Positions 22,006-48,419 are shown, numbered from the stretch's first letter. The stretch: DNA of 64,000 nucleotides from an uncultured Alphaproteobacteria bacterium (GCA_910577205.1 CAJTMA010000007.1:5373-69372); one strand, 5' to 3'. Numbers and translations are program-made. Notes: generated from the sequence alone by a model not told the origin.

Positions 22006-22035
22006 TTCTTTATATCTCCGATATTTAAAATTTTA

Positions 22036-23982: not shown

Positions 23983-24748
23983 ATTCTTCGTCATACTCCC
24001 GTTGAGATGTCTCGGCAGTTCTATAAAAAACGCTTTCATATTCAAGAATTTCCTTGTCCTTTGCAATAATCCAAGGAATGTCTTTATGGGAAAAATCAGA
24101 TAACTCTTTACCTGTTTTATCTGATAGACGTTCTAGTTCTTTATCAATATGTCTTAATTCTTGGGCAGAAAGCAAAGATAAATTAGGCTCCTTAATTGGA
24201 AGATATTTCGTTTGATCTTTCTTAAAATATTTTGTTTTAACTTCTTCTAGTTCTCCGTTTTTTTCCATTTCCTGAATAAGTTTTGCAAAATCCACAGGAG
24301 TAGGACCGTAAGTGTTTTTAATATATTTTAACCCCATAAGCTGTTCCTCATAAAGCTCATAATAGTCAAAATCAATAAAATATAACAACTTATAAATAAC
24401 GGTTTGACCAACATTAGGTTTGGCACCAACTTTATTAAGAATATAAAGTAAAACTTGTTTAAATTTTGTAATATTTTCCCGAGGAATATCAATACGAATA
24501 TCGTTTTGAGTGGAGGAAACAACTTTTTCTATAATGTTATATGTCGGCCTGTTTGGCATTTTATTATCAATAATACACGAGTAATCGACATCAAAAATAT
24601 CCGCTAATTTTTTAATGATATCGATGGGAAGATTGTTTTCTCCATTTTCATATTTGCTTAAGGTTTGGCGCGTTATTCCTAACTGAGACGCCAAATCGTC
24701 CTGTGAGATATTTTTTTCGTCTCTCAGGACTTTCAAAATTTTAAACAT
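23975..24748 (-). CDS. HTH-XRE plus Panacea (DUF4065) domain antitoxin-like protein (PanA-like)
   Basis: 257 aa. N-terminal HTH_3 (LASQLGITRQTLSKYENGEN). Central KLLYFIDFDYY...YGPTPVDF resembles the DUF4065/SocA-type signature. Confidence 0.6.
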   Translation of the reverse strand: MFKILKVLRDEKNISQDDLASQLGITRQTLSKYENGENNLPIDIIKKLADIFDVDYSCIIDNKMPNRPTYNIIEKVVSSTQNDIRIDIPRENITKFKQVLLYILNKVGAKPNVGQTVIYKLLYFIDFDYYELYEEQLMGLKYIKNTYGPTPVDFAKLIQEMEKNGELEEVKTKYFKKDQTKYLPIKEPNLSLLSAQELRHIDKELERLSDKTGKELSDFSHKDIPWIIAKDKEILEYESVFYRTAETSQREYDEEYA

Positions 24749-24791
24749 TTTAAGCTCCTATTTATTATTTATTTGAATATAATACAAAAAC

Positions 24792-24815
24792 GTTAAAATG
24801 TCAATATATTTTAAC
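24792..24815. promoter_or_regulatory. inverted repeat gttaaaat-N8-attttaac upstream of the HTH-Panacea gene (putative autoregulatory operator)
   Basis: Perfect 8 bp arms in the promoter region, with a ttgaatataat -10-like element nearby. Confidence 0.3.
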
Positions 24816-24942
24816 ACATAGGTGTAAGCGGAGTTTAACTTGAATTTGTAGATAAAAAACTCAACCAATCTTTAGGAATGCAAATACTTTTTAATTTTTT
24901 ATATCCGTATTGTATCAAATAATATATTATAAAAAATCTTTC

Positions 24943-26337: not shown

Positions 26338-26409
26338 CTGTTAAATTAACACAAAATTTTATCTGATAAACTTTAATTTATTAGATATTAAAAGCTTTGT
26401 AGCTAAAAC

Positions 26410-27715
26410 AGCACCAGATTTGGTGCTGTTTAATAATAGATATTCCTTTGAAATACAATAAAATTCTCTTGTAAATATTAATGCAAAGGAGAATAAAAAT
26501 GGGAATGTCAAAATTTACTCAGGAAATTAAAAGTGAAATTGCAGAAAAATACAAAAAAGGAGCGGATGTTATTTTGTTGTGCCAAGAATATGGCATCTCC
26601 AGAAGTTACCTATACAGGATTGTCAAGCTAAAAAAGAAACATCGAAATCCGCATCAAAAAAGCACATATACCCTCTGGGATATAGAATTTATGAAAAGAG
26701 AGTTGATGACGCTTAAAACAGAAAATGAGATTTTCAGAAAAAGCGGTTGTGGATTGAGTGCTTCTAATGATGAGAAAATAGCCGTAGTTGAAAAGTTAAA
26801 AGATGAATATTCCATACATATCATTTGTAAAACGTTAGGATTACTAAAATCAACATATTATCACAGAATAATGAGGGCTCCGGAAAAGAAATGGTATGAA
26901 ATTCGCAATGAAACGCTTAAGCCCGAGATTCTTGAAATATTTAAAGAGAGCAAAGAACGTTTCGGAGCTCCCAAGATAAAAATAAAATTGGAAGAAAAGG
27001 GGATCGCGGCAAGTATTGAAACTGTTGCGAAACTAATGAAAGAAATGGGATTGATTTGCAAACAGAATTGTGTAAAGAAACATAATCCGACAAAAAACTA
27101 TTATGCATCTCCTCTAAACATATTAGAACGAAATTTCAATCCGGATGCTCCAAACAAGTGTTGGGTAAGCGACATCTCTTATATGAATACTGATGGAGGA
27201 TGTTGTTATATCTGTGTTGTGTTGGAGCTTTTTTCAAGAAAAGTTATTGCATATAATGTTTCTGACAGAATTGATACAGATTTGGTTTTAACAACTTTTG
27301 ACAAAGCGTATTTTGACAGGGGCAATCCTAAAAATCTGATTTTTCATTCAGACCAAGGAACACAATATACTTCTTCTAGATTCCAATATGCCTTACAGAA
27401 GAACAATGTTCGTCAATCGCTTTCAAAACCGGGAACGCCGTATGACAATGCGGTAATGGAACGATTTTTCAAATCGATAAAATATGAGTGTTTAAAACAT
27501 AAAACCTTTCAAAACATAGATGAATTGAGGACAACTGTTGAAGAATATATAAATTATTACAACGGAATGAGACCGATGAAAACGCGGGAAAATCTGCCTC
27601 CTAATGAATTTGAACGGCGATATTTTGAGAAAACGGCGTGTTAAGATTATGATTTAAACGAATAAAGCTCCGTAAAACGGAGCTTTATTTTGTAGACCTA
27701 GTCTACTAAAAAGAG
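26410..27715 (+). mobile_element. IS3-family insertion sequence (approximate boundaries)
   Basis: Contains a single fused transposase ORF. Terminal inverted repeats could not be defined by eye; both flanks share a ttgtag motif. Confidence 0.35.
26481..27644 (+). CDS. IS3-family transposase (fused OrfAB, HTH plus DDE/rve integrase core)
   Basis: 387 aa. N-terminal HTH and leucine zipper (ELMTLKTENEIF), HTH_21-like region (ERFGAPKIKIKLEEKGIAASIETVAKLMKEMGL), and a DDE core (WVSDISY, HSDQGTQYTS, MERFFKSIKYE). Confidence 0.8.
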   Translation: MQRRIKMGMSKFTQEIKSEIAEKYKKGADVILLCQEYGISRSYLYRIVKLKKKHRNPHQKSTYTLWDIEFMKRELMTLKTENEIFRKSGCGLSASNDEKIAVVEKLKDEYSIHIICKTLGLLKSTYYHRIMRAPEKKWYEIRNETLKPEILEIFKESKERFGAPKIKIKLEEKGIAASIETVAKLMKEMGLICKQNCVKKHNPTKNYYASPLNILERNFNPDAPNKCWVSDISYMNTDGGCCYICVVLELFSRKVIAYNVSDRIDTDLVLTTFDKAYFDRGNPKNLIFHSDQGTQYTSSRFQYALQKNNVRQSLSKPGTPYDNAVMERFFKSIKYECLKHKTFQNIDELRTTVEEYINYYNGMRPMKTRENLPPNEFERRYFEKTAC

Positions 27716-27740
27716 TCTAAAAAAGCCTCTTACTTACAAA

Positions 27741-27816
27741 TGGTGAGCGCGTCGGGATTCGAACCCGAGACCCTTTGATTAAAAGTCAAATGCTCTACCA
27801 GCTGAGCTACGCACCC
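27741..27816 (-). tRNA. tRNA-Lys (anticodon TTT)
   Basis: Manual fold: acceptor GGGTGCG/CGCGCTC, D-arm GCTC..GAGC, anticodon stem TTTGA/TCAAA with loop CTTTTAA, T-arm TCGGG-TTCGAAT-CCCGA, and an encoded 3' CCA. Confidence 0.85.
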
Positions 27817-29148: not shown

Positions 29149-30282
29149 TTAAACTTCCTTTATCAAATTTGCTAAATAGTTTCCTAAGGTTTCCATATTG
29201 GTTTGACTTTTAGCAATCAAGTCGCGAACGGGAATGGGCATATAAGCTTTAGCGACAATCGAACGCATTTGGGCACAAAGGTCTTGAGCATCTCCTGCAC
29301 GAAAATAGAGGATACGATCATAGACAACACCAAGGTTGGTTTTAATATCTGAAACGACAACAGGCACACCTAAAGCTGCGGCATCATAAACAGAACCTCC
29401 GCCTGGTCCGCCTTCAAACAGGGTTGTCTGAATGACAGCTGTTGCCCCTTTCATAATTTGCAATTGTTCTTCTTTGGGAATTAAGCCTAAGAATCTGACT
29501 TTATCTTCAATATTCAGCTCTTTTAGCAAATCTTTCAGTTCCCTGATATATTCCGGCCGGCGTCCGTCTTCCATTGCCCCGGTGAAGATAAATTCCATAT
29601 CTGCATCTGTTTTTAAATACTCGGCAAATGCACGAAAAGCTGTCGGATGGTCTTTATGAATCCAAAACTGGTTAGACATCATAAAATAACGCTTGGGAAG
29701 ATGATATTTTTTTATTTGCCGAGAATAATCTTTGTAATAGCATAAATCAATCTTCGGTGTATAAGGCAATACACAGATTTTCTCCGGAGAAGCCTTAAAA
29801 AATTTTATCAAATCATCTTTTACAGTTTCGGCATTAACGATAATTTTCTGCTGACAATCGACCACATTCTGAAAATAGGCATCTCGGGCTTTAATCTCAT
29901 CATCAGAAAAAAATTCCGGCAAATAACAATGCTGGCAATCATAGAGATAGGCAATAGTCTTGATATCGAGCAGCTTTGTTCCCATATAAGGTAAAACGAC
30001 ATCTAGATTATTTTTCAAAAACGCGCTAGCAAGAGATGAGAAATAAATAAATTTAATATTTTTAAATTCTTTAAAAATGCTTTTAGCTTGCCGTATTTCA
30101 CGCTGCTTAACAAAAAAACGTTTTATTCCCTTGAAATTCCGATAATTAATTACATCAAGCATAATAAATAATTCTAACTGTTGTTTTTTGGCAACACTTT
30201 GCAGAGAAAAAATAATATGTTTCAAAAAATCATTGGCACCGGAAAGGCCGGTAAAATTTTGCGTCAAAATGCCAACACGCAT
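29149..30282 (-). CDS. glycosyltransferase (GT1/GT4-like, GT-B fold)
   Basis: 377 aa. C-terminal E-x7-E-like region TTLFEGGPGGGSVYDAAALGVPVVVSD. Confidence 0.55.
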   Translation of the reverse strand: MRVGILTQNFTGLSGANDFLKHIIFSLQSVAKKQQLELFIMLDVINYRNFKGIKRFFVKQREIRQAKSIFKEFKNIKFIYFSSLASAFLKNNLDVVLPYMGTKLLDIKTIAYLYDCQHCYLPEFFSDDEIKARDAYFQNVVDCQQKIIVNAETVKDDLIKFFKASPEKICVLPYTPKIDLCYYKDYSRQIKKYHLPKRYFMMSNQFWIHKDHPTAFRAFAEYLKTDADMEFIFTGAMEDGRRPEYIRELKDLLKELNIEDKVRFLGLIPKEEQLQIMKGATAVIQTTLFEGGPGGGSVYDAAALGVPVVVSDIKTNLGVVYDRILYFRAGDAQDLCAQMRSIVAKAYMPIPVRDLIAKSQTNMETLGNYLANLIKEV

Positions 30283-30292
30283 TTCATATCTC

Positions 30293-30757
30293 CTATAGTC
30301 TTTTTATGCAAGATAAACGATCCGTTACAAAACCTAATTTTTGATACAGGGAAACTGCAGTTTTATTATCTGCCGACACATCAAGCGATATCTCGGCAAT
30401 TTGTAACTCTGCGGCCAAATCCATTACCGCTGCCATTAATTGTTTTCCTAATCCTTTGCCCGAAAATTCAGGAAGAACAGCAATATGGTTTAGATGTAAA
30501 CGCATTATCCCAAAACAATCTTTGGGGTAGACATAAGCCAAGCCGAGCATTTCCCCTGCGTCAAATAAGCCGAAAACAACAGCTTCTCCGGCGTTCAGAA
30601 AATCTGCGCATTGCTTTACTTTGTCCGCAATGAATTCGTTAGAAAAGACAGCGGCAGGAAATGAATGTTGAAAAGACTCTAAAAAAAGTTCCCTTATTGT
30701 TTCATCATAAACAGAAAAATCTTCTGATTTCAATTTTCTGATATTTATACCAGTCAT
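30293..30757 (-). CDS. GNAT-family N-acetyltransferase
   Basis: 154 aa. Acetyl-CoA binding motif VLPEFSGKGLGKQLM. Confidence 0.7.
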   Translation of the reverse strand: MTGINIRKLKSEDFSVYDETIRELFLESFQHSFPAAVFSNEFIADKVKQCADFLNAGEAVVFGLFDAGEMLGLAYVYPKDCFGIMRLHLNHIAVLPEFSGKGLGKQLMAAVMDLAAELQIAEISLDVSADNKTAVSLYQKLGFVTDRLSCIKRL

Positions 30758-31458
30758 ACCAGCTTTCCTTTGGTAACCATATTTTTGACGGTGTCAACAT
30801 CATTAAACATCAGCACATCGATAATTGACAAGAACGGAACAAACTCTTTCCCAAATTGGGGATAGGCTTCTATTTCTTTTTCTAAGAATTTTAAAGTTAA
30901 ATTTTGCGCCGCAAAATCTTCTCGGTTATAGAGATGCTGCCCGTTTATGTTGTTAATGTATGTTTCCCCATTTAATTTTTGGGTGATGTCAATGATTTTG
31001 CTTTGAGCATTAACATCACGGTTATAATCAATATCTGATGAAAACAACAATTCCGTAGTTATTCCCAGACGGGCGTTAAGGTGTCTGAGGCTATACTCAA
31101 TTAATTTCGGAACATTTCGGTTATCATAATTGACGACATCTTCAATGAGCGAAAATGTTTCCTTAAAATACGGCGCATGGCGATAGGCATTGGCAATCTT
31201 ATTTAAGTAGTCAGCTTTAAGCTCCGGATTTGACGTAAACGACACTTGGTTGATTAAATCCCGAGAGCCATGCTTATCGACAGCCAACGTTACTTTCGTT
31301 TCTTCACCATTTTGCAAAATCGTATGGCGATTAATCCAGCCTCTTATCCATTGAACATCATCATAAAGAACATATACATCCACTGCATTTATCAGTTGAA
31401 AGTAGCCAATATAAGGAAAAAGATATGGCTGCATTACGGCAATTTTTTTATTTGGCAT
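30754..31458 (-). CDS. WbqC-family protein (O-antigen sugar modification)
   Basis: 234 aa. N-terminal IAVMQPYLFPYIGYFQLI is characteristic of WbqC-like proteins. Confidence 0.65.
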   Translation of the reverse strand: MPNKKIAVMQPYLFPYIGYFQLINAVDVYVLYDDVQWIRGWINRHTILQNGEETKVTLAVDKHGSRDLINQVSFTSNPELKADYLNKIANAYRHAPYFKETFSLIEDVVNYDNRNVPKLIEYSLRHLNARLGITTELLFSSDIDYNRDVNAQSKIIDITQKLNGETYINNINGQHLYNREDFAAQNLTLKFLEKEIEAYPQFGKEFVPFLSIIDVLMFNDVDTVKNMVTKGKLV

Positions 31459-32542
31459 AAAATTCTCCTATTTTAGCGCAAATATAATCCACGTCTTTTT
31501 CTTCCAATGCCGGATAGGAGGGCAGATTAATACCGCGCAACGCAATATCTTCAGCTACGGCATGGCGTTCATATTTCTGCGCATAGACCGGCATGGTGTG
31601 AATCGGGTAAAATGTCGGACGGGTTTCAATTCCCTGCTCTTTCAGATAATTACGCAGTTCTTCGCGCTCGCTTTCACTATCGGCCAGAATTGAGCACATC
31701 CACCATGTATGGCGAACCTTGCCGACAGCGTCATGGAATTTGACCGGAAGATTTTTTAATTTTTCTTTATACCATTTGGCAACATTTTGCTTGCGGGCAA
31801 TAAAATCTTCCACCTGCTCAAACTGAGCCAAGCCAATGGCAGCCTGAATATTAGTCATCCGGTAATTATAGCCCATGGTATCATGCCAATATTCCCGATA
31901 TTTGGCCAAGCCCTGTCCTTTGAAATGCACCAAACGACCATACAAATAATCACTATTGGTTAAAACCATGCCGCCCTCACCGCAAGTAATGGTTTTATTG
32001 CCAAAGAATGAGAAGCAGGCGACATCGCCGAAAGAACCGACTTTTTTGCCTTTATATTCCGAGCCAATAGCCTCGGCGCAATCTTCAATAACAAAGAGAT
32101 TATGTTCTTTGGCAATAGCCATAATTGTATCCATATCGCAGGGATGCCCATAGAGGTGGACAACCATAATCGCTTTGGTTTTCGGCGTAATTTTGGCTTT
32201 GACATCTTCCGCATCCAACTGCCAAGTATCCGCCCGGCTGTCAGCAAAGACAGGCGTTGCGCCGACTTGCAAAATCGGATTAGCGGAGGCTATGTAGGTA
32301 AATGTCGGCACAATAACCTCATCCCCTTCTCCCAAACCCAGAGCAACCAAAGCCAAGTGAATGGCAACCGTTCCGTTGCACACGCCGGTGCCGTGTTTGA
32401 CGTCGATATAACCAGAAAAGGCTTTTTCAAAATCATTGACGAATTTTCCCTTTGATGAAATCCATGTTGAATCAAGGCATTCGTTCACATACTTTTTTTC
32501 ATTTCCGGTCAAGCTCGGCTGATAAACGGCATATTTATACAT
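31448..32542 (-). CDS. DegT/DnrJ/EryC1/StrS-family PLP-dependent sugar aminotransferase
   Basis: 364 aa. Fold-type I aminotransferase pattern with the FSFFGNKTITCGEGG (active-site Lys) region. Confidence 0.85.
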   Translation of the reverse strand: MYKYAVYQPSLTGNEKKYVNECLDSTWISSKGKFVNDFEKAFSGYIDVKHGTGVCNGTVAIHLALVALGLGEGDEVIVPTFTYIASANPILQVGATPVFADSRADTWQLDAEDVKAKITPKTKAIMVVHLYGHPCDMDTIMAIAKEHNLFVIEDCAEAIGSEYKGKKVGSFGDVACFSFFGNKTITCGEGGMVLTNSDYLYGRLVHFKGQGLAKYREYWHDTMGYNYRMTNIQAAIGLAQFEQVEDFIARKQNVAKWYKEKLKNLPVKFHDAVGKVRHTWWMCSILADSESEREELRNYLKEQGIETRPTFYPIHTMPVYAQKYERHAVAEDIALRGINLPSYPALEEKDVDYICAKIGEFYAK

Positions 32543-32600
32543 TCAGATATTCCTCCTAAAAGCTATACTATAAAAAAGCAGGATCAGTTTTTATCATCTA

Positions 32601-33434
32601 TCAGCCCCTTACCTTTAATGCCGGAATGAAACCGAAGAGATAATGACGAGATGTTTTATTAAAAGATATAATTCTCCATATCAAAAGCCCACAGAAATAA
32701 TAAGATTTGATTTTATGTGCAAGATTAATATGCTTTTTATAGATTGCAGAATGATCTTTTGCTTGACGGTCCTTATATTTTCGATTAGTGCTTAAACCAC
32801 CGAGTTCAAAATTAGCTATTATTTCATTCAAGTAAGAAACTTTTTTACCTGCAAACTTCCAAGCCCTAATATTGAATTCATAGTCAGCATAAATCGGATA
32901 TGCTAAATCATACCCTCCTAATTTTTCAAAAATTTTTTTATGATAAAAAATAACCTGATGGCAAATACCTTTACGAAATACACTTTTAGCATTTTGAGCA
33001 TAGCCATAGTAATTAACTGTATTACCTTCATGGTAATCACTTGTATCCTCTCCGCTTTCCGGATTTAGAAAAAAGATATCTCCGAAAACAATCAACGGCT
33101 GGGTCTCATTAAACCTATCAACCACTTTTTGGCAAACATCATCTGAATAAAAGCTATCATTAGAATTTAAAAAGTATATAATATCGCCGTGTGCTGCTTT
33201 AATACCTTTATTCATAGCATCATAGACACCCTTATCTGGCTCCGAAACCAAATAACCTAAAAGAGCCTCATACTCTTGAAATATTTTAACAGTATCATCG
33301 TTTGAACCGCCATCGACAGCAATAACTTCAATATTCTGATAGGTTTGCGATTTAATACTCTCCAAAGTTTTTCGCAAAGTAACTGCCGAATTCTTGGTTA
33401 CAACAATAATTGAGATTAAAGGATTATGCTTCAT
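32601..33434 (-). CDS. family 2 glycosyltransferase
   Basis: 277 aa. ISIIVVTKNSAVTLRKTLESIKSQTY...AVDGGSNDDT and a DxD region. Confidence 0.75.
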   Translation of the reverse strand: MKHNPLISIIVVTKNSAVTLRKTLESIKSQTYQNIEVIAVDGGSNDDTVKIFQEYEALLGYLVSEPDKGVYDAMNKGIKAAHGDIIYFLNSNDSFYSDDVCQKVVDRFNETQPLIVFGDIFFLNPESGEDTSDYHEGNTVNYYGYAQNAKSVFRKGICHQVIFYHKKIFEKLGGYDLAYPIYADYEFNIRAWKFAGKKVSYLNEIIANFELGGLSTNRKYKDRQAKDHSAIYKKHINLAHKIKSYYFCGLLIWRIISFNKTSRHYLFGFIPALKVRG

Positions 33435-34489
33435 TGTTTAATATACCATTCATAAAAGTCTTTGATACCTTGTTTGAGGGGGATTTTGGGTGTCCAGCCC
33501 AGAGATTTAATACGGGTAGCATCCATCATTTTGCGCGGTGTGCCGTTTGGTTTGGAAGTGTCATATTCCAGTTTTCCGGCAAAGCCCGTGGCTTCTTTAA
33601 CGATTTCAAACAAGTCTTTTAACTGAATATCATCCCCATTGGTGATATTGACGTGTTCTCCGATATCCTCATAGTCTTTATTTTCCATCAGGTAGACACA
33701 GGCATCAGCCAAATCGTCAGAGCTCATCAATTCACGATAAACAGAACCATCTCCCCAGAGAACAACCTTGTCCCGGAAAGCACCAACTTGATTCAAAGCC
33801 CATTCAAGCGAAGCATTATCGGTATAATTAACTTTCTCATCCAATCCCCAGCCTAATTTATATTTCTGCAAATCGGTGCGGATAGCTTCAAAATTATTTT
33901 CAGACAGCAGCTTAGCTAAATGGAAACGGCGCATAATCATCGGCAGCAAGTGTGCGGTTTCCATATTAAAATTATCGCCAATACCATATTGGTTTGTCGG
34001 CATAACCGAAATATAATTTGTGCCATATTGTTCATTGTAATAACGGCACATTTTTATTGCGGCAATTTTAGCCAAAGCATAAGCTTCATTGGTTTTTTCT
34101 AATTCCGAAGTGAGGAGGCAATCCTCTTTCATCGGCTGCGGCGCCAAACGCGGATAAATACAGGATGACCCCAAGTTCAAAAGTTTTTTAACCCCGGTGA
34201 GGTAAGAACTGTGAATAACGTTAGCATCTATCATCAAGTTTTGATAAATAAATTCCGCCGGATAGGTTTGGTTAGCCATAATCCCGCCGACTTTAGCCGC
34301 GGCCAGAAAGACGTAATCAGGTTTTTCTGCTTCAAAAAATGCTAATGTCGCCGCCTGATTGGTTAAATCCAATTCCTGAGAACTGCGGGTTATGATATTG
34401 GCATAACCCTTTTCTTTCAGTTTACGAACGATTGCCGAACCTACTAACCCTCTGTGGCCGGATACATAAATCTTCGCATCCTTTTCCAT
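33431..34489 (-). CDS. fcl: GDP-L-fucose synthase (GDP-4-keto-6-deoxy-D-mannose 3,5-epimerase/4-reductase)
   Basis: 352 aa. KIYVSGHRGLVGSAIVRKL Rossmann motif and YxxxK. Adjacent to gmd. Confidence 0.85.
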   Translation of the reverse strand: MEKDAKIYVSGHRGLVGSAIVRKLKEKGYANIITRSSQELDLTNQAATLAFFEAEKPDYVFLAAAKVGGIMANQTYPAEFIYQNLMIDANVIHSSYLTGVKKLLNLGSSCIYPRLAPQPMKEDCLLTSELEKTNEAYALAKIAAIKMCRYYNEQYGTNYISVMPTNQYGIGDNFNMETAHLLPMIMRRFHLAKLLSENNFEAIRTDLQKYKLGWGLDEKVNYTDNASLEWALNQVGAFRDKVVLWGDGSVYRELMSSDDLADACVYLMENKDYEDIGEHVNITNGDDIQLKDLFEIVKEATGFAGKLEYDTSKPNGTPRKMMDATRIKSLGWTPKIPLKQGIKDFYEWYIKQ

Positions 34490-34492
34490 GAT

Positions 34493-35560
34493 TTAAGCCT
34501 CTCTGGGGGTTAAAGTTTCATAACCGTTATCGTTCAAAAGCTTTTCTTTCTTGGCCAGCTTCAAATCTTCGGCAACCATTTCTTTAACCAAAGCGGCTAA
34601 ATCATAATTAGGTTTCCAACCCAGTTTTGTTCTGGCTTTGGTACTGTCGCCTAAAAGGAGTTCTACTTCGGCCGGGCGGAAGAAGCGCGGATCAACTTCA
34701 ACCAACACTCTGCCGCTCTGCTTATCAATACCTTTTTCATTAACGCCTTCGCCCTGCCATTCAATATCAATGCCCAATTCTTTGAAAGTCATGCTTACAA
34801 AGTCACGGATTGAAGTGGTCGTGCCGGTCGCCAAAACATAATCTTCGGGTTTGTCCTGCTGCAATATCCGCCACATTCCTTCAACATAGTCTTTCGCGTG
34901 ACCCCAGTCGCGTTTGGCGCTTAAATTGCCAAGGTATAACTTATCCTGCATTCCTAAAGAAATGCGGGAGGCGGCCATGGTAATTTTACGGGTTACGAAA
35001 GTTTCGCCACGACGCGGGCTTTCATGGTTAAACAAAATGCCGTTAGAGGCAAAAATACCAAAGCTTTCGCGGTAATTGACGCAAATCCAATAAGCATAAA
35101 GTTTAGCTACGGCATAAGGCGACCGCGGATAAAACGGGGTGGTTTCGGACTGTATCGGCTCTTGTATCAAACCATATAATTCGGAAGTCGACGCCTGATA
35201 AAACTTTGTCTTTTTTTCCAAACCGCAAACGCGAATGGCCTCTAACAAACGCAATGTGCCAAGCGCATCCGTATCTGCAGTATATTCCGGGCAATCCCAA
35301 GAAACTTTAACGTGCGACTGCGCAGCCAGATTATAGACTTCATCAGGCTCAACTTCTTTTATCAGGCGGATAAGGTTAGAACTGTCAGTTAAATCACCGT
35401 CATGCAGCTTTATTTTTCCGGCAAGGTGGTCAATTCTCCCGGTGTTAAAGAGTGACGACCGGCGTTTTATGCCATGAACTTCATAGCCTTTTTCCAGCAA
35501 AAGCTCTGCCAAATATGATCCGTCTTGTCCTGTAATACCTGTAATTAATGCTTTTTTCAT
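34493..35560 (-). CDS. gmd: GDP-mannose 4,6-dehydratase
   Basis: 355 aa. [19 protein letters not shown] and the conserved SDR extended-family motifs. Confidence 0.9.
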
Positions 35561-36483
35561 TACTTGTCCTCGTTAATTAAGTTAATTCCCATGATACGGA
35601 TGACGCGGCGGCCTTTCCGTAAACGAAAAGTCAACAGCCAATGGCGAAGCTGTTTCAGTTTCTCATAATGTTTCCAATAAAAAAGATATTTGTGTTTGTT
35701 CGGCAGAGAGGTTCGGCTTAAAATTTTAAGCAGCAAACCAAGCGGCATCTTGCGATTATCTTCGATTTCCTGTGCCAGTTCTTTGCTACAGCCATAAACT
35801 TCTCGTTTGACTTCAACACTCTCTGCATTCAACATATCCATATGTGTGCCTGACAAACCGTCTTTGCCGAAAACAGCATAAGATACCGGCACTTTTACAA
35901 AAGAAGCCCCTTTTAACAAACTGCGCAGAATGAAATCATAGTCCGCAGAGATTTTATATTTGATGTTGTGCAATCCGACACGTTCAAACAGGCTGCGTTT
36001 AAACACCATTCCCTGATGGCAGCAAGCCATAGCGCCGAATATGGTTCGAAAATCCATATCTTTTTCATCATTGCCTATGATTTTTCCGCCTTTTTCATAA
36101 CTGACGGGAGAATATGAGAAATCCGCCCGACTGTGACGCAAGGCTTTTACGGCCTCTGCCAAACCAGCCGGATTATTCAGATAGTCGTCAGAATTAATGA
36201 AGCAGACATATTCACCCTGAGCCTTTGCAATACCGCGATTAAACGCATCATAAATTCCTTTGTCCGGCTCAGAGAATATTTTTATCCAACCCTGATTTTC
36301 ATAGGATTTAAGAAAATCAAGCGTTCCATCCGTCGAAGCGCCGTCAATTACCAAGTGTTCGATACGGACATCTTGCTGACTGCGAATACTCTCCAGGCAA
36401 CGGAGCATTTGCTCCCGCCGCCCGCTAGACAACAGGTTAAACGATGCGGTAATCACACTGACATCAAATGGCTTAGGCATCAA
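35560..36483 (-). CDS. family 2 glycosyltransferase
   Basis: 307 aa. VSVITASFN...SIRSQQ...DGASTDGT and a DxD region. Confidence 0.75.
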
Positions 36484-42070: not shown

Positions 42071-43147
42071 ATGAAAATATTAGTCGGAATGAGCGGCGGA
42101 GTTGATTCTTCCGCGGCTGCTTTGTTGTTAAAGAAAGCCGGGTACGACGTTATCGGCGCAACAATGTCTATTTGGGATAAATCTCAAAATTTTGCAGGCA
42201 TGACAGGAAAAGAAGGGTGTTTCAGTCCACATGAAGAACAGGATGTGGAAGCGGCGAAAAAAGTTTGTGCCAAGCTTGATATTCCTTACCATGTTATTGA
42301 CTGCACCGAGGAATATAAAAAAATCGTCTTATCCAATTTCAAATCGGAATATTTGGCAGGAAGAACACCGAATCCTTGCGTTTTATGCAATGCAACCATT
42401 AAATTTGCAGCTCTTCCCCGCGCTGCCAAAGCTTTGGGACTGGAATTTGATAAATTTGCAACCGGGCATTATGCCGGATTAGGCTATGATGAAACCACAA
42501 AACGTTACCAGCTGCATTGCGGCAAAGATTTACGCAAAGATCAGGCTTATTTTTTATATCGTCTGACACAAGAGCAGCTTTCTGAAATTTTATTGCCCCT
42601 CGGCGACTACAGCAAGCAGGAAATCCGCGATTTGGCCAGAGAAGCAGGCTTAGAAGTTTGCGACAAACCCGACAGTCAGGATTTTTATTCCGGTGACATC
42701 AATGATATCATTCAAGAAGAACCCAAAACAGGAAATTTTGTTGACAAGGACGGAAAAATCCTCGGGCAGCACCATGGCTTTTGGAACTTTACCATCGGGC
42801 AGCGCCGCGGATTGGGAATCGCTGCGGAAAAGCCGTTGTATGTCATTGAACTGCGCCCTGAACAAAATGAAGTGGTATTAGGATTTGCTGACCAAACGCT
42901 GCAAAAAGGCCTCGAAGCTAACCGGCTCAACTGGGTTTCAATTTCCAAACCCTCTGCACCGTTTTGCTGCCAAGCGAAAATCCGCTCATCTCAGAAAGCA
43001 GTTCAAGTCCGTGTTTCCCCTCTTGGGAATGACAGTGTCAAAGTGGAATTTGAAGATTTACAAAAAGCATTAACTCCCGGACAATCCGTCGTTTTCTATG
43101 ACGGGAGCTTATTGCTCGGCGGCGGATTTATCACGGAAGCTTATTAA
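42071..43147 (+). CDS. mnmA: tRNA-specific 2-thiouridylase MnmA
   Basis: 358 aa. PP-loop VGMSGGVDSS and the catalytic Cys region NPCVLCN. Confidence 0.9.
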   Translation: MKILVGMSGGVDSSAAALLLKKAGYDVIGATMSIWDKSQNFAGMTGKEGCFSPHEEQDVEAAKKVCAKLDIPYHVIDCTEEYKKIVLSNFKSEYLAGRTPNPCVLCNATIKFAALPRAAKALGLEFDKFATGHYAGLGYDETTKRYQLHCGKDLRKDQAYFLYRLTQEQLSEILLPLGDYSKQEIRDLAREAGLEVCDKPDSQDFYSGDINDIIQEEPKTGNFVDKDGKILGQHHGFWNFTIGQRRGLGIAAEKPLYVIELRPEQNEVVLGFADQTLQKGLEANRLNWVSISKPSAPFCCQAKIRSSQKAVQVRVSPLGNDSVKVEFEDLQKALTPGQSVVFYDGSLLLGGGFITEAY

Positions 43148-44031
43148 AATTTGACGTTCAGCAGAACTTTGCGGTAAAATTCTAAAACAGCGCGAATCTT
43201 TGGAATATCTTTGGTTAAACGGTGCGCAACCAGATAAAATGTCATTTGCGGTTTCATGGTGATATTCTTTAAGCGGACTAAATCCGTATCGCGGGTTTCA
43301 TCGTGAACCATAATTCCAATGCCGCCACCGCTGCGGACAACATTGGCAATAGAATGGTTAGAGTTTGAGGTAAAACTGATGTAAGACCCTCTGCTCATAA
43401 TATCTTTCCATTCTTTCAAGTAACGGTAATTAATCAGCTTGCCGCAAATACGGTGATTTTGAATGAGGTCTTCCAAATCTTTAGGTTCGCCATACTTTGC
43501 CAGATAAGAGGGCGCGGCCACAAAGCTACAGCTAATCACTTTGCTTTCGACGATAACCAAATCAGAACCGCTCGGCGGCTCCAGCATAAAACCTAAATCA
43601 ACGTCCAAAACATTAAGGTTTGGCGATTGGTAATGGGATACAGATTCGATACGGATATTGGGATAATTTTGCCAGAATTCATCAATTCCATCAGCGTGCA
43701 AAACGGAAGCAACAGCCAAAGGCAAGCCGACCCGCACCACACCGGACATGGTATTTTTATGAGAGGCAACAACATCTACGCCGCGGATAACCTTTTTGAC
43801 ATCAAATCCCATTTTGATAATATGCTGCGCTTCATGCGTCAGAACCGATCCTCGCCCATTGCTGGTTACCAGTTTGATACCCAGCTCTTTCTCCAAATCG
43901 GCCAAATACTTATTAAGCGTATCAACTGACAGGCTGAGCGACTCGGCTACTTTTTTCTTACTATTGTTCTCTGCAAGGGCAACCAACATCAACAGCCCTT
44001 CCAGTTTAGCAATATCCTGTTTGCTAATCAT
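43144..44031 (-). CDS. LysR-family transcriptional regulator
   Basis: 295 aa. N-terminal HTH (LVALAENNSKKKVAESLSLSVDTLNKYLADLEKELGIKL) and a C-terminal substrate-binding domain. Confidence 0.8.
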   Translation of the reverse strand: MISKQDIAKLEGLLMLVALAENNSKKKVAESLSLSVDTLNKYLADLEKELGIKLVTSNGRGSVLTHEAQHIIKMGFDVKKVIRGVDVVASHKNTMSGVVRVGLPLAVASVLHADGIDEFWQNYPNIRIESVSHYQSPNLNVLDVDLGFMLEPPSGSDLVIVESKVISCSFVAAPSYLAKYGEPKDLEDLIQNHRICGKLINYRYLKEWKDIMSRGSYISFTSNSNHSIANVVRSGGGIGIMVHDETRDTDLVRLKNITMKPQMTFYLVAHRLTKDIPKIRAVLEFYRKVLLNVKF

Positions 44032-44063
44032 TCCGCCTATCCCCGCCTGTCAGCCACAGTCTG

Positions 44064-44576
44064 TTAGACTTCCCAACTACGGGAAAACTCTTCGTCTTTA
44101 AATAACGATGCCAAGCCGGTTATTTGTTTGAGGCGCAGCACTTCATCGGCAGACATTCCGATATTGCGGCAAATCCACGAATCGCTTTTGCCCATTTCCA
44201 ACAACTCGGCAACAATGTTGCTCATCAAATCTACATTGTGACTACCGCGCGCACGGTTATGGCGGATGGTAGAAGCCATACGATCGCCCAGCGGTTTGTC
44301 AATCACAACAACAGGCATCAAGCCGCGTTCCCGCTCATAAATACGCGGGCTGGTCATCATTGTGGTATAGCGGTGGAAGCCGTCAACGACGATATATTCA
44401 TCATTTTCTTTATCATAATAACAAACAATCGGCTGGGTATAACCATCCTCCCAGATGGAAATTTCCAGCAATTTCATTTCCGGAGGAGCTACACGGTTCG
44501 GGTTGTAGTCGTTAGCTTTAATTTTTTCGACTGGAATAGCCTGTACATTATAGACCGGACTCTTAAATTCACTCAT
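44064..44576 (-). CDS. ParB-like nuclease domain protein (IbrB/YbdM-like)
   Basis: 170 aa. ParB-N/sulfiredoxin-like core VEKIKANDYNPNRV...IVVDGFHRY. Confidence 0.65.
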   Translation of the reverse strand: MSEFKSPVYNVQAIPVEKIKANDYNPNRVAPPEMKLLEISIWEDGYTQPIVCYYDKENDEYIVVDGFHRYTTMMTSPRIYERERGLMPVVVIDKPLGDRMASTIRHNRARGSHNVDLMSNIVAELLEMGKSDSWICRNIGMSADEVLRLKQITGLASLFKDEEFSRSWEV

Positions 44577-44586
44577 TAGTCATTCC

Positions 44587-45924
44587 TCACAAATTACGAT
44601 ATTTTTCCATTAATTCCCGTTCACGCTCCGCCTGTTTTTTGGTTTGGGTAAAGCCCATATATTTGCAGAGGTGGTCATTTTTCAAGATACAGACCGCCAT
44701 ACGCTTCCATGACGGAATGTCGATAGATGATTTGATGTCATCCGTGTTGTCCGGCGTTCCGAGAAAACGAATTTTATCGCGCGTTTTATTGTAACCGCTC
44801 GGACCGTTATGGCGGATGGGATAGTTACAATCCTCCAATTCTTTCAATGCCGCTTCATTAACCACGCCGCCTTTTTTCCACCAAAAACGAATGGAGGTTT
44901 TGAATTTGGCAACATAGTTCTGGCGCATACTTTCAGGAAGCGTCGCCAGCAAAAACTTGACATAAGAACGCCAGGTATGCCCCGGAGGAAGCGTAAACTT
45001 GCGAGCGCCTAAAGCTTTGGTATTGCCATAAATAGCTCCAAAATTAGCACCCTGCACCCGCCCGACAACGCGAATCCATGTATCCGGCTCTAAGACGCGA
45101 TATAAGTTCAAGCTGTCTTTGGCACTTTCATGGTAAGGGCTGGCAACGCGCATTTGGTTAATTGACAAACCGGCCTTATAGAAGAGGTCATAAATGTGGT
45201 TATAATCATAGTCATATTTGCCGTTAGCGACCCAGACATCCTTGGTTGTCCAGTCATACAGCGGATAAGCATGGTAGAAGTCCTTGCCCATTTTAGTCGT
45301 CCATTTGCCTTCGCCAAAACTGGTTTTCCGTTCGTTGGCATAGGCTCTGTATCGGTTCAGGGATTCATCGGCGCGAATGCCCAGCAGGCAGATTGTTGTC
45401 CCTTCATGCTGTCTGGCATACCATCTGCCAAATTCTGCATAAAAGTCTTCCTGCGGCATTTTATATTTATAAAAATCAAAGTTATGGTTTTCCAACTTGA
45501 TAATGTAGTCCTGCTTAGGCATAGAGCGCACCCAGGCGGCTTTTTTATCCGGGTCCCATGTATACCAATACATTTGGTAATTGCTTACAGCACAGCGCGA
45601 GGCCTGCGGAATGCAGACCCAATAAGGCTCAATATCATTAATATTGTTTTCAAACATACGGGTAACATAATCCGTTGTTGTCTGGTATTGCGCTTCAAAA
45701 TCCTGGTGGAAAACGCCGATTTTCTTCTGGATATTATTACGGCGTTTATAATCCAGCACCATGTTGAGCAGCAGGCCGCTGTCTTTGCCGCCGGAGAAAG
45801 ACACATAAATATTGTCAAAGTTATCAAATATATATTTCAAACGAGCCTGTGTCGCCTCGTACACATTGATATCCAAATATTTTTTCACAGTCGCAATGCC
45901 TCCTCTTTCGTAATCATATGGCAA
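44587..45924 (-). CDS. PAPS-reductase-family ATP pyrophosphatase, IbrA/YbdN-like (DUF3440-like C-terminus)
   Basis: 445 aa. PP-loop SFSGGKDSG near the N-terminus, with a long C-terminal extension. Gene order with the ParB-like and LysR genes mirrors E. coli ybdN-ybdM-ybdO. Confidence 0.65.
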   Translation of the reverse strand: MPYDYERGGIATVKKYLDINVYEATQARLKYIFDNFDNIYVSFSGGKDSGLLLNMVLDYKRRNNIQKKIGVFHQDFEAQYQTTTDYVTRMFENNINDIEPYWVCIPQASRCAVSNYQMYWYTWDPDKKAAWVRSMPKQDYIIKLENHNFDFYKYKMPQEDFYAEFGRWYARQHEGTTICLLGIRADESLNRYRAYANERKTSFGEGKWTTKMGKDFYHAYPLYDWTTKDVWVANGKYDYDYNHIYDLFYKAGLSINQMRVASPYHESAKDSLNLYRVLEPDTWIRVVGRVQGANFGAIYGNTKALGARKFTLPPGHTWRSYVKFLLATLPESMRQNYVAKFKTSIRFWWKKGGVVNEAALKELEDCNYPIRHNGPSGYNKTRDKIRFLGTPDNTDDIKSSIDIPSWKRMAVCILKNDHLCKYMGFTQTKKQAERERELMEKYRNL

Positions 45925-47141
45925 ACGTTTGACAGAACGTTCTTTTTGCGTTCAAGGTTATCATTAATCAGTTGTTCCAAATTGGTTTTTACCCAAAAGT
46001 CATAAATGTTTAGTTTACGGGCAATGCCTTTGCTGCTGATGCTGTCCAACCCTTCCACCTTACATTTATAATCAAAAGTCTGTGAAAAATATATAATATT
46101 ATTACACAATTGCATATCTAAACCGAATTTATCAACACCATAAGTGCAAAACATGATATCGGCATGACGCTCAAACTCTTTGATGGCTTTACGCTTGTTG
46201 GATTTGCCGGTTAACTCGACAAATTTGACATCCCCGAAAAATTTACTTTCTTTGAAAAAAGTAATTTCATCTAAAAACTTAATAAAAATAATAACTTTTT
46301 CCCCTCTGGCCAAAATCTGTTTAACCAGCTCCCGCAAGGCTTCCAGCTTGTTTTGTGACAGCGTATACATCCGCTGGAAATTTTGCACAACATCCATAAA
46401 CGCTACCTGTTCCCGCTCTTGCAGAAAGAGATTTTTTTCATCATTATAACTTTCTTCTTCACGCGGTGTCAGTTCAAAATATTGGTTCCTGTGGGTAATT
46501 TCGATTTCTTCTCCGAAATCATACCCCAAGACATAGGGTTTTATGTATTCAAAAAGGCGTTGTTCGTCTTCAGGGCGCGACCACTGCTTTATGACAAGAT
46601 AGTTACTATAGCTGGAAGGCATAAAGATATGACCGAACTGGTTTTCATTCATACGCAAAATCCGCGTATCCAGAAATTCTATTTGCGAATATAAATCAAT
46701 TAATCCCTGTGTCAACGGTATACTGCTCAATATCAGGCGGTAACTGAATTTAGAACTTAAGGAAAGAAGGCGCTGTGTTCGGCCAGCTTCTGTGTTTTTG
46801 ATGGTAATACTTTCGTCTACAACGCAAAAAATTTTAAAATTATGGATTAAATTATAAAGCTCTAGGTACTTCTCATCAGAAACAGACACACTCTCTATTG
46901 AATAAAAATATATGCGGTGGCGGAAAGTGCGGTTGTTCTTTTTAATCTCATTCATATAAGAACGAGTCGCCAGAAATCCTGACGGGGCTATCCAAATAAT
47001 AAAATCAACCTCGTCCAGTTTTTCTTCAACCAAAGCCAAGGCCATTTGAATTTTTTTAACGGCTTGGTTTATGAATAAAATGCCCGATCGCAAATCGCTT
47101 AATTTTTGGTGAGCTGCCATCAATACATCATCTTTTATCAT
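45885..47141 (-). CDS. SNF2/DEAD-like helicase core fragment lacking motif I (possibly N-terminally truncated)
   Basis: 418 aa. DExx box CVVDESI, SNF2 motif III-like LILSSIPLTQG, and helicase-C motifs (KVIIFIKF..., VELTGKS, FCTYGVDKFGLDMQ). No Walker A. Only 147 bp separate it from divergent flgI. Confidence 0.5.
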   Translation of the reverse strand: MIKDDVLMAAHQKLSDLRSGILFINQAVKKIQMALALVEEKLDEVDFIIWIAPSGFLATRSYMNEIKKNNRTFRHRIYFYSIESVSVSDEKYLELYNLIHNFKIFCVVDESITIKNTEAGRTQRLLSLSSKFSYRLILSSIPLTQGLIDLYSQIEFLDTRILRMNENQFGHIFMPSSYSNYLVIKQWSRPEDEQRLFEYIKPYVLGYDFGEEIEITHRNQYFELTPREEESYNDEKNLFLQEREQVAFMDVVQNFQRMYTLSQNKLEALRELVKQILARGEKVIIFIKFLDEITFFKESKFFGDVKFVELTGKSNKRKAIKEFERHADIMFCTYGVDKFGLDMQLCNNIIYFSQTFDYKCKVEGLDSISSKGIARKLNIYDFWVKTNLEQLINDNLERKKNVLSNVCHMITKEEALRL

Positions 47142-47288
47142 AGTCGTTTCCTTAAGTTTATTAGTACCTATCTAATATATAATATCACAATAAAAACTTC
47201 CAAGCTTCTCTTAATAGTTGCCAATAGCGTTTTTGGCACGGATATTGCATATGCTCACACAAGTTTATTGTATTTTTGGTAGGATGTT

Positions 47289-48419
47289 ATGGTTATGACA
47301 ACTCTTTTATTTAAGAAATCTGCGGTGTTCAGCATTGTTTGCGCTATGTGGCTGGGAATAGCACCTTCCGCAGCAGCAAGCTCGCGAATAAAAGATATTG
47401 CCGACTTTGAAGGAGTCAGAGAGAACCAATTGGTCGGTTACGGCCTGGTTGTGGGTTTAAACGGCAGCGGCGATAACATCAAATCCATCAATTTCACCAA
47501 GGAAAGTTTAATCAGTATGCTCGACCAACTTGGCATTAATGCCAGAGATGGGCAGCTGAAGTCCAAAAACATAGCCGCGGTGATGGTTACGGCCAGCCTG
47601 CCGGCTTTTGCCCGTCAAGGCAGCCGGATTGACGTTATGGTCAGCGCTATGGGCGATGCCAAGAGCCTGCAAGGCGGTACTTTGGTTGCCACGCCGCTGG
47701 TCGGTGCCAATGGCGAGGTATATGCTGTTGCGCAAGGGCAAATAGCAACCGGCAGCGTCGCCGCACAGTCCGGCGGCACTTCGGTTACCCGCGGTGTTCC
47801 GACATCGGGAAGAATCGCCAACGGCGCAATTATTGAAAATGAAATTCAATTTGCTTTGGACAGCCTTGATAATATCCGCATTGCCCTGCGCAATCCGGAT
47901 TTCACCACCGCACGCAGAGTATCCGATGCGATTAACGCCATGTTGGGGCAGCCGGCAGCAAAAGCTACTGACCCGGCAACTGTCGACCTGCAAATTCCGC
48001 AGGAATATCAGGACAAGGTGGTTGATTTGATGACAAAAATCGAACAGTTGCAAGTCCAGCCGGATCAGCTAGCCAAAGTTGTCATCGACGAAAGTTCCGG
48101 CATTATCGTTATCGGCAAAGATGTTAAAATTAACAAGCTGGCAATTGCCCAAGGAAACCTGACCATCAAAATTTCTGAAATTCCGTTGGTTTCCCAGCCC
48201 CTACCCTTTACCGGCGGCACAACAATTACCCGTAATGTGACGGCTATTGACATTAATGAAGAGGTTAACAGCAAACTGAGCGTGTTGGATACCGGCGTAA
48301 ATCTGCAGGAACTGGTAGACGGACTGAATGCATTGGGCGTTACCCCGAGGGATTTAATCAGCATTTTGCAAGCGGTTAAGGCCAGCGGCGCATTACAGGC
48401 TGACATAGAGGTTATTTAA
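47289..48419 (+). CDS. flgI: flagellar P-ring protein FlgI
   Basis: 376 aa. Signal peptide, then RIKDIADFEGVRENQLVGYGLVVGLNGSGD. Confidence 0.9.
   Translation: MVMTTLLFKKSAVFSIVCAMWLGIAPSAAASSRIKDIADFEGVRENQLVGYGLVVGLNGSGDNIKSINFTKESLISMLDQLGINARDGQLKSKNIAAVMVTASLPAFARQGSRIDVMVSAMGDAKSLQGGTLVATPLVGANGEVYAVAQGQIATGSVAAQSGGTSVTRGVPTSGRIANGAIIENEIQFALDSLDNIRIALRNPDFTTARRVSDAINAMLGQPAAKATDPATVDLQIPQEYQDKVVDLMTKIEQLQVQPDQLAKVVIDESSGIIVIGKDVKINKLAIAQGNLTIKISEIPLVSQPLPFTGGTTITRNVTAIDINEEVNSKLSVLDTGVNLQELVDGLNALGVTPRDLISILQAVKASGALQADIEVI

Follow-up and report, generated by a model that had tools for sequence, protein, structure and literature searches.

In this study, we characterised a module of three genes, coding for a short SNF2-like protein (hereafter SNF2L), an IbrA/YbdN-family protein and an IbrB/YbdM-family protein, in a 64,000-nt stretch of DNA from an uncultured Alphaproteobacteria bacterium (GCA_910577205.1, CAJTMA010000007.1:5373-69372), the whole 64-kb length of which is called the window. 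Taken together, the identity of the genes and their evolutionary history indicate that the locus very probably descends from a mobile phage cassette that became fixed in the chromosome and is now inherited vertically. In its mobile form the cassette comprises a small protein, a short SNF2 ATPase, IbrA and IbrB; the small protein has been lost in the lineage of the window. The locus is more orderly than was first supposed, and less exotic in origin. The explanation that accounts best for the observations, to which we give a probability of roughly 45%, is that the products of this domesticated phage cassette form a DNA-bound complex in which IbrA would act locally on DNA.

The SNF2-like protein is complete but predicted to be ATPase-dead

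Pfam assigned SNF2-rel_dom (1.2e-7) and Helicase_C (8.6e-5) to SNF2L. Among 5.8 billion proteins searched, 184 homologs were found. The best 120 of them ranged from 93% down to 41% identity, with E values reaching 1e-256 among these approximately 120 full-length sequences, and were nearly all 411 to 440 amino acids (aa) in length, so the family is naturally short. In at least 70 species-level genomes, spanning 36-93% identity, the length was held steadily at 416-419 aa. The AlphaFold2 model of SNF2L (predicted local distance difference test score [pLDDT] 81, predicted template modelling score [pTM] 0.73) matched, in Foldseek, the whole two-lobed motors ISWI, Mot1, CSB, Chd1 and INO80 with E values of ~1e-18 and template modelling (TM) scores of 0.72-0.79. 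Alignment with phage homologs revealed that lobe 1 is complete and that the Walker A position is filled, with the motif altered. The first-pass annotation had described an SNF2-like helicase core without Walker A; the core stands, whereas the word "fragment" does not, given that the protein is a complete two-lobed one in which Walker A is degenerate rather than truncated away.

The degeneration affects particular motifs. Motif I (Walker A, residues 24-32) reads INQAVKKIQ in the window protein and MKxGTGKTx in the phage homologs, motif III is LSSIP as against LNGTP, and motif VI, which bears the arginine fingers, is LDSISSKGIAR as against xHRIYRxGQ. Motif II (VVDESITIKN) is kept in the window protein and the phage homologs, and SNF2L also retains motif Ia (WIAP) and the IKN block after motif II. 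Measured against an active translocase, SNF2L thus has the two RecA-like lobes but lacks Walker A and the motif VI arginine fingers. Judged by sequence and model, its SNF2 core is complete but the catalytic site has degenerated, and it is most probably a pseudo-ATPase that, having lost motifs I, III and VI, is not expected to translocate at the expense of ATP. The two-RecA-lobe fold and the SNF2-specific insertions are common to SNF2L and the SNF2 double-stranded DNA translocases (the Rad54-like protein of Sulfolobus [1z63], ISWI, Mot1, CSB, ZorD and DrmD), from which the window protein differs in the loss of motifs I, III and VI and in its minimal size of 418 aa, with no accessory domains.

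A phage cassette with a dedicated SNF2 partner

The distribution of the module was determined in two scans. The genome scan, with one genome per species, gave 183 relatives, and the viral scan, of IMG/VR, gave at least 483; the best 80 of each were used, those of the viral scan comprising 67 strong SNF2L loci and 13 weak matches. IbrA adjoined SNF2L in all 80 genome loci, and 78 of them had both IbrA and IbrB, always in the order SNF2L-IbrA-IbrB (S-A-B), while the other two end at a contig edge. Among the strong viral loci, IbrA adjoined SNF2L in 64 of 67 and both partners were present in 62, the remaining five being cut by contig ends; the gene order was S-A-B in 56, S-B-A in five and A-B-S in one. 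None of the 13 weak matches, which are to unrelated SNF2 proteins, had IbrAB nearby. Conversely, IbrB was adjacent in 78 of the 79 viral IbrA loci. IbrA and IbrB are the core pair, and the short SNF2L is a dedicated accessory that was not seen without the pair. We therefore rejected the earlier notion of a helicase-like gene added to the others: SNF2L is the dedicated partner of IbrA/IbrB, in what is predicted to be an ATPase-dead state.

Some viral IbrAB loci without the short SNF2 (L177-L255) have other recurrent genes nearby: 13 have a longer SNF2 protein of ~472 aa whose motifs are intact, 11 a DEAD-box-type superfamily 2 (SF2) helicase of ~517 aa and 17 an uncharacterised protein of ~137 aa. 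No single alternative partner dominates among these loci.

In cultured phages, full-length DUF3440-type IbrA was found in 118 records and the short SNF2 in 125, essentially in the same phage groups; the "PAPS reductases" of mycobacteriophages and Bacillus phages match the N-terminal domain alone. The cassette lies between endolysin and cro in Streptococcus phage CHPC1148 (gp26-28), is carried with overlapping genes by Lactobacillus phage CR28, and is placed between terminase and portal in Flavobacterium phage FCV-1 (gp07-09), where the order is SNF2-ParB-IbrA. Strictly lytic phages carry it too. The trio of the window matched phrog_62, phrog_2302 (1e-109) and phrog_2159, the last of these being the match of IbrB (2.7e-81). 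The cassettes of CHPC1148, CR28, FCV-1 and FCL-2 consist of the same three families in overlapping genes, ordered as in the window apart from FCV-1, with SNF2L proteins 27-30% identical to that of the window over ~95% of the length, but, unlike the window, they keep GTGKT, NGTP and RxYRxGQ and an upstream small protein (phrog_5809 or phrog_8389).

The ATPase motifs of SNF2L were scored by GxGK[TS] (Walker A) and RxxRxGQ (motif VI). Both motifs were gone from the window protein and from all 70 gut alphaproteobacterial genome loci, and both were present in 64 of the 67 viral loci and in all ten loci of Opitutales, Holosporaceae and Arcobacteraceae. In a neighbour-joining tree with unrelated SNF2 proteins as the root, one pure clade took in 74 of the 75 dead sequences, and the sister group of that clade holds intact versions. 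This topology points to a single ancient inactivation. L120 (IMGVR_UViG_3300011188_000232), the only viral SNF2L without a GxGK[TS] match, fell outside the dead clade and may represent either an independent loss or an artefact of the open reading frame (ORF) or of the regular expression.

The small protein, ~90-120 aa in length, overlaps the start of the SNF2 gene and belongs to no Pfam family (examples are L007:7751-8017, L009:3837-4160 and L010:4661-4990). We found it at 65 of 84 viral loci and at each of the ten intact bacterial loci, but at none of the 81 dead-clade loci, nor anywhere in the window. It appears to be a fourth cassette component, and its loss goes together with the inactivation of the motor.

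The bacterial loci with intact motifs are not uniformly prophage-borne. In L084 (3927-5183; the Holosporaceae metagenome-assembled genome [MAG] UBA3830), the intact cassette lies directly downstream of a phage-type integrase that has inserted behind clpX-lon, an arrangement suggestive of an integrated element. In L094, a Puniceicoccaceae isolate, the cassette has intact motifs and housekeeping flanks (an mcsB-like gene, clpC and a methyltransferase gene).

Vertical inheritance and purifying selection

The hosts of the dead clade are uncultured Alphaproteobacteria of the gut, sampled from humans, chickens and ruminants, and the closest named relative is Candidatus Scatocola faecipullorum (88%; Rhodospirillales). 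The 93% relative has the identical gene order flgK-flgJ-flgI, SNF2L-IbrA-IbrB-LysR, mnmA, and in the 74-78% relatives the order is flgI, trio, mnmA, with LysR missing. Wherever flgI was in range (22 relatives, with SNF2L identities as low as 53%), the trio and flgI were divergently arranged; more distant members lie elsewhere, such as L001 beside lpxK. The identity of the cassette correlated with that of FlgI (Spearman 0.78-0.88).

The ratio of nonsynonymous to synonymous substitution rates (dN/dS), computed between the window and the 93% relative, was 0.042 for SNF2L, 0.009 for both IbrA and IbrB, 0.032 for LysR, 0.024 for FlgI and 0.096 for MnmA. Over 78 genome loci, the median identity to the window proteins was 49.9% for SNF2L, 76.8% for IbrA and 83.5% for IbrB; SNF2L evolves faster than IbrA/IbrB yet stays constrained. 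These ratios indicate that the trio is under strong purifying selection, and the dead SNF2L gene should be a functional one, given its dN/dS and its constant length.

The low GC content that the first-pass annotation had attributed to the module holds for SNF2L only (0.373, approximately 1 standard deviation below the ORF mean of 0.432 +/- 0.055) and not for IbrA (0.445), IbrB (0.456) or LysR (0.434), the window as a whole being at 0.424. Because the GC of SNF2L is below that of its flanks in 61 of 62 relatives, its low value is a property of the gene. The recent horizontal acquisition proposed partly on that ground fails under the refuting condition that the first-pass annotation had itself set: the adjacency to flgI is conserved, the divergence of the cassette tracks that of FlgI, and the GC of IbrA and IbrB is typical.

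The IbrA and IbrB proteins

IbrA has the marks of its family, namely an SGGKDS PP-loop domain, a full-length DUF3440 and an adjacent co-oriented IbrB gene. Pfam matched DUF3440 (PF11922) at 5.4e-77, over profile positions 1-181 of 182, and PAPS_reduct (PF01507) at 6.5e-12. The N-terminal PP-loop reads SFSGGKDSG, of which FSGGKDS was invariant in 240 family members. The only broadly conserved cysteine is Cys408, in the C-terminal KNDxxCK motif (87-98% conserved). The nearest folds to the N-domain are those of flavin adenine dinucleotide (FAD) synthase, the adenosine 5'-phosphosulfate (APS) and 3'-phosphoadenosine 5'-phosphosulfate (PAPS) reductases and CysD, and also TilS and TtuA.

Against the curated NCBIfam cut-offs, IbrA scored 18.9 of 154 for CysH (PRK02090), 17.5 of 272 for TtcA, 22 of 93.6 for TilS and 17.6 of 290.4 for DndC (TIGR03183), and it was also far below the cut-off for LarE. 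It has no ECGLH motif and no iron-sulfur (Fe-S) cysteine cluster. An assignment of IbrA to assimilatory CysH was therefore rejected on its PRK02090 score and the missing ECGLH cysteine, and the expectation that the protein would not group with CysH or tRNA-modifying enzymes was borne out.

IbrB has a ParB N-domain, the family motifs and homology to YbdM. The Pfam ParB_N match (3.1e-5, score 24.4) is just below the gathering cut-off of 26.3. The invariant motifs of the protein are NxYNPNxVA, VDGxHR and RHNRARGxH. Its profile resembles the nucleotide-binding N-domain of Noc/ParB/Spo0J, with DGFHR falling on the GERR box, and also the ParB/Srx-fold kinases, and its C-terminus contains a helix-turn-helix (HTH)-like segment. 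In the clade with dead SNF2L, both proteins keep all of the residues conserved in their families (FSGGKDS, DxE, GxRxxESxxR, YPxxDWxxxDxW and KNDxxCK in IbrA, and the three motifs above in IbrB).

The pair resembles DndC/DndB, in which a PAPS-reductase-family PP-loop enzyme is likewise combined with a member of the ParB/Srx superfamily bearing a motif of the DGxHR type. However, IbrA lacks the cysteine dyad and the Fe-S motif of DndC, DndC lacks DUF3440, and the module is flanked by LysR, mnmA and flgI instead of DndA, DndD and DndE. Dnd phosphorothioation (DndABCDE) was accordingly rejected as the identity of the module, on the DndC score and the lack of its partner genes among the flanks.

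Gene layout and junctions

ORF calls and Pfam confirmed the four co-oriented minus-strand ORFs between mnmA and flgI with the domains that had been named for them (Table 1, which also lists genes from another part of the window). The SNF2L-IbrA junction reads ...AAAGAGGAGGCATTGCGACTGTGAAAAAATAT..., where the GTG at 45888 is the start of IbrA and the TGA at 45885-45887 is the stop of SNF2L. A GAGGAGG ribosome-binding site is located ~10 nt upstream of this GTG (GAGGAGG-N10-GTGA), and in every relative the called IbrA is 433 aa long and overlaps SNF2L by 4 nt. The TTG start at 45924 was therefore discarded as a longest-ORF artefact, and the 40-nt overlap of the two genes in the first-pass annotation is really one of 4 nt. 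IbrB follows 10 nt downstream of IbrA, and LysR 32 nt downstream of IbrB. The overlap, the ribosome-binding site and the 10- and 32-nt spacing indicate that SNF2L, IbrA and IbrB are probably translationally coupled. A promoter scan found 16 candidates as against 10.3 +/- 3.6 in shuffled sequence, which is not above chance, and no specific promoter is claimed; terminator counts were likewise not above the shuffled expectation, and no regulatory site is claimed.

Table 1. Positions of the genes and junctions of the module and of other genes in the window
Feature	Position	Strand	Remarks
SNF2L, 418 aa	45885-47141	-	Pfam SNF2-rel_dom and Helicase_C
IbrA/YbdN-family protein, 433 aa	44587-45888 (longest ORF to 45924)	-	PAPS_reduct PP-loop and DUF3440
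IbrB/YbdM-family protein, 170 aa	44064-44576	-	ParB_N, YbdM homology
LysR-type regulator, 295 aa	43144-44031	-	Pfam HTH_1 and LysR_substrate
mnmA (tRNA-thiolating)	42071-43147	+	Flanks the module on the LysR side
flgI	47289-48419	+	Flanks the module on the SNF2L side
GTGA start/stop overlap, SNF2L/IbrA	45885-45888	-	Read directly from the sequence
Divergent intergenic region SNF2L/flgI, 147 bp	47142-47288		From ORF coordinates; presumed promoters of both
DUF6602	22036-22743		Low-GC block; overlaps the nucleotidyltransferase
NTP_transf_2/SMODS-like nucleotidyltransferase	22737-23525		Low-GC block
HTH_3 and SocA_Panacea antitoxin	23975-24748		Low-GC block
KAP-family P-loop NTPase	24943-26337		Low-GC block
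IS3-type transposase	26481-27644		Low-GC block

The LysR gene and the comparison with Escherichia coli

IbrA is 32% identical to E. coli YbdN (E 2e-73, 420-aa alignment); for IbrB and YbdM the identity is 49% (E 1e-52). The E. coli pairs, IbrA/IbrB of the ECOR-9 island and YbdN/YbdM, are like that of the window in having an IbrA with PAPS_reduct and DUF3440 followed by a co-oriented, adjacent IbrB. The presence of ybdNM in 5,421 of 5,426 E. coli genomes, which makes it a core locus, parallels the fixed chromosomal state in the lineage of the window. K-12 has citR(ybdO)-ybdN-ybdM, in which LysR precedes the pair and no SNF2-like gene is part of the locus, whereas the window retains an SNF2L, predicted to be ATPase-dead, and differs in the placement and ancestry of its LysR.

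With 22% identity over 77 aa (E 0.015), the window LysR is not an ortholog of YbdO/CitR; NCBIfam matched it best, though weakly, to YafC. It stands beside the trio only in the closest relatives (L012-L014 and L022) and is missing at the same site in L015 and L017-L021. Relatives at 78% SNF2L identity or below, and most relatives overall, have no such gene. We regard it, from this distribution, as a late, lineage-specific addition and not as a conserved member of the cassette. As it barely resembles YbdO and sits at the opposite end, its association with IbrAB is independent of that in E. coli. The supposed copy of the ybdN-ybdM-ybdO arrangement thus holds in that IbrA and IbrB are homologs of YbdN and YbdM, and fails for the LysR gene.

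A third, unrelated LysR gene, the product of which has 25-26% identity to the window LysR, is found between flgI and the trio in three MAGs (L027:4092-4979, L028:4073-4960 and L034:4065-4961). Unrelated LysR genes have thus come to lie beside IbrAB on at least three separate occasions: on its downstream side in the window lineage, in these MAGs, and upstream as YbdO in E. coli (L011:6717-7619). Such repeated recruitment suggests that a chromosomal IbrAB pair needs tight control.

IbrAB is reported to activate silent eib genes in E. coli, which is said to be the only genetic phenotype known for the pair. In E. coli, YbdO represses ybdNM, and without ybdO the expression of ybdN (log2 5.5), ybdM and the whole cys (sulfate assimilation) and flagellar regulons is increased (PMC9068703, Table 1 therein). 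In Ralstonia without rprR, IbrAB rise together with fliC and flgE (bioRxiv 10.1101/2025.06.11.659228). The joint rise with cys or flagellar genes may reflect a link to sulfur demand or motility, or may be coincidence; the response in E. coli is compatible with sulfur use or with a regulatory output.

Proposed function and alternative explanations

Given that the genes appear translationally coupled and that the SNF2L family was never found without IbrA/IbrB, SNF2L, IbrA and IbrB may form one DNA-bound complex. IbrB, with its ParB/Srx nucleotide-binding N-domain and its HTH, would bind DNA and position IbrA. IbrA would use ATP to activate a phosphate or another group of the DNA for substitution, giving a covalent DNA mark, and sulfur might be passed via its near-universal C-terminal Cys408. 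The adenylation step is proposed because each of the nearest structural relatives of IbrA (FAD synthase, CysD and APS/PAPS reductase), as well as DndC, a relative by family, forms or cleaves an anhydride of the adenylyl-phosphate or adenylyl-sulfate type. DNA is suggested as the substrate by the likeness of the pair to DndC/DndB, and double-stranded DNA by the dedicated SNF2 partner. In phages, the active SNF2 motor would move IbrA/IbrB along the genome for genome-wide marking. In the window bacterium, the ATPase-dead SNF2L would be a static DNA-binding scaffold that confines IbrA/IbrB to local or regulatory action, and such local action fits both the activation of silent eib genes by IbrAB and control by a LysR regulator. 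A DNA-directed modification role for IbrA/IbrB is plausible. That DNA is the substrate of IbrA is, by analogy, an evenly balanced proposition, and the specific chemistry of adenylation or thiolation is put forward only tentatively.

Several observations weigh against this explanation. Cys408 is missing from 13% of the phage IbrA members, and the family alignment has no Fe-S signature, which weakens the sulfur-transfer model. The DUF3440 half of IbrA, modelled at modest confidence, gave no structural relative, and the substrate of IbrA could be RNA, protein or a small molecule. The 79 viral IbrA loci had the short SNF2 in eight cases, a more divergent SNF2 in eight and no SNF2 in 62; because so many pairs have no SNF2 partner, the translocase would not be essential to the core activity of IbrAB. 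We infer DNA binding by IbrB and the formation of the complex from domains and gene linkage. SNF2L keeps a basic residue at the position of the Walker lysine and, for the most part, the D-E of motif II, and may still bind nucleotide. Finally, the literature searched, which holds annotation-level mentions and the YbdO regulon study, gave no experiment or biochemistry for IbrA, IbrB or the SNF2L partner, in agreement with the first-pass annotation, which had called the function of the pair unknown.

The main rival explanation is that the trio is a non-covalent transcriptional regulator or anti-silencer, in which IbrB would be a VirB/KorB-like switch, SNF2L a remodeler-derived DNA clamp and IbrA a supplier or sensor of a nucleotide ligand that leaves DNA unmodified; the trio would open or counter-silence particular promoters, the target being perhaps the divergent flagellar operon. 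The strong induction of the flagellar regulon that coincides with the derepression of ybdNM on ybdO deletion, the rise of IbrAB with motility genes in Ralstonia, the divergent position next to flgI in the 22 relatives, the suitability of an ATPase-dead SNF2 for static binding and the repeated recruitment of LysR regulators are all in keeping with it. However, the PP-loop signature of IbrA is fully intact and its dN/dS is the lowest of the locus together with that of IbrB, which argues for catalysis; lytic phages carry the cassette, in terminase/portal or accessory regions, where a regulator of host promoters is less obvious; and only a single sub-clade, with 17 of 80 genome loci, has flgI next to the trio, the neighbourhood of L001 being different. 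Taken together, we consider this explanation unlikely.

A defence function, as had been suggested from the sequence at first, would have IbrA and IbrB mark self DNA, in the manner of restriction-modification, and SNF2L sense or attack unmarked invader DNA. PAPS-reductase and ParB-like proteins do occur in Dnd, BREX type 4 and Dpd systems, and a 2026 preprint predicts, as prediction only, NAP-linked "PAPS reductase (+ParBc)" defence clusters. PADLOC found similarity of SNF2L to ZorD (9.5e-10), DpdE (9.6e-9) and DrmD (1e-4) and of IbrA to DndC (1.8e-6) and BrxP (8.7e-4), but every match was partial and weak, that to BrxP covering only residues 34-56, the 23 residues of the PP-loop, and the locus was rejected as a defence system. 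No nuclease or effector gene was seen in the contexts examined, where the flanks are the housekeeping genes flgI, mnmA, lpxK, a Mur ligase gene and lon; the ATPase motifs of SNF2L are lost; many phage genomes, lytic ones among them, carry the family; and the locus is syntenic, vertically inherited and of ordinary GC, unlike the low-GC island at 20-28 kb of the window. We hold a defence role to be quite improbable. The likeness to BREX type 4, with BrxP, and to Dpd, with the ParB-like ATPase DpdB, DpdE and other helicases, is thematic, in that a PP-loop or ParB-like enzyme is combined with SF2/SNF2 helicases on DNA. Neither system was accepted as the identity of the module, the former because only the PP-loop matches and there is no PglZ, BrxC or BrxL beside the module, and the latter because the DpdE similarity is partial and no DpdA (TGT-family) gene adjoins it.

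Sulfur assimilation of the CysH type, or the activity of a tRNA or small-molecule PP-loop enzyme unrelated to DNA, might be read from the PAPS_reduct match, from the presence of APS/PAPS reductases, CysD, TilS and TtuA among the nearest folds, from the induction of the cys regulon when E. coli ybdNM is derepressed and from the tRNA-thiolating mnmA two genes away. Against this stand the scores far under the CysH, TtcA and TilS cut-offs, the absence of ECGLH and of an Fe-S cysteine cluster, the obligate link of IbrA to a ParB-like partner, seen in 78 of 79 viral loci, the company of a dedicated family of SNF2 double-stranded DNA translocases, and carrier phages without other sulfur genes nearby, so that this alternative has little probability. 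That the trio is a decaying, non-functional prophage remnant, in which a recently acquired helicase pseudogene with hitch-hiking genes would have lost its ATPase motifs and small partner protein and kept a lower GC, is highly improbable, being contradicted by selection (dN/dS of 0.04 for SNF2L and 0.009 for IbrA and IbrB, and a length kept constant over 36-93% identity in the 70 or more genomes), by an intrinsically low SNF2L GC and by synteny, with divergence that tracks flgI.

Significance of the domesticated cassette

The literature searched gave no description of a dedicated short SNF2 partner of IbrAB, of a fourth small protein of the cassette, or of an ancient ATPase-dead, domesticated form in gut Alphaproteobacteria, and a reappraisal of Dnd and a survey of BREX both leave IbrA and DUF3440 unmentioned. 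IbrA/IbrB (YbdN/YbdM, DUF3440) is a widespread pair, core in E. coli and common in phages, for which a dedicated SNF2-type partner has now been found, and the widespread annotations "PAPS reductase", "partition protein" and "helicase" are corrected accordingly. The loci make up a natural series, from a predicted active motor in phages through a putatively ATPase-dead motor fixed in gut Alphaproteobacteria to no motor in E. coli, and this series offers tractable systems in cultured lytic phages, in E. coli deleted for ybdO and in SNF2 proteins that can be compared as active and dead pairs.

As a speculation, which we think doubtful in its entirety, IbrAB with the short SNF2 motor and the phage small protein might be a PP-loop-dependent DNA-marking machine that works genome-wide in phages, for example against host restriction; a whole clade of gut Alphaproteobacteria would, far back in time, have disabled the motor and so obtained a local epigenetic or regulatory device, and E. 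coli YbdN/YbdM would be the motor-less endpoint. If IbrAB does modify DNA, the known DNA chemistry of phages and bacteria would gain a new kind.

Other features of the window

A low-GC block occupies positions 20000-27816 of the window, with 2-kb bins at 0.28-0.37 as against 0.424, and ends at tRNA-Lys(ttt) (27741-27816). Its genes are listed in Table 1, and it resembles a mobile or defence-type island associated with a tRNA gene, unlike the locus of the trio. At 29149-36483 lie genes of polysaccharide biosynthesis (GT1, WbqC, DegT aminotransferase, GT2 and others), forming a cluster of moderately low GC (~0.37-0.39).

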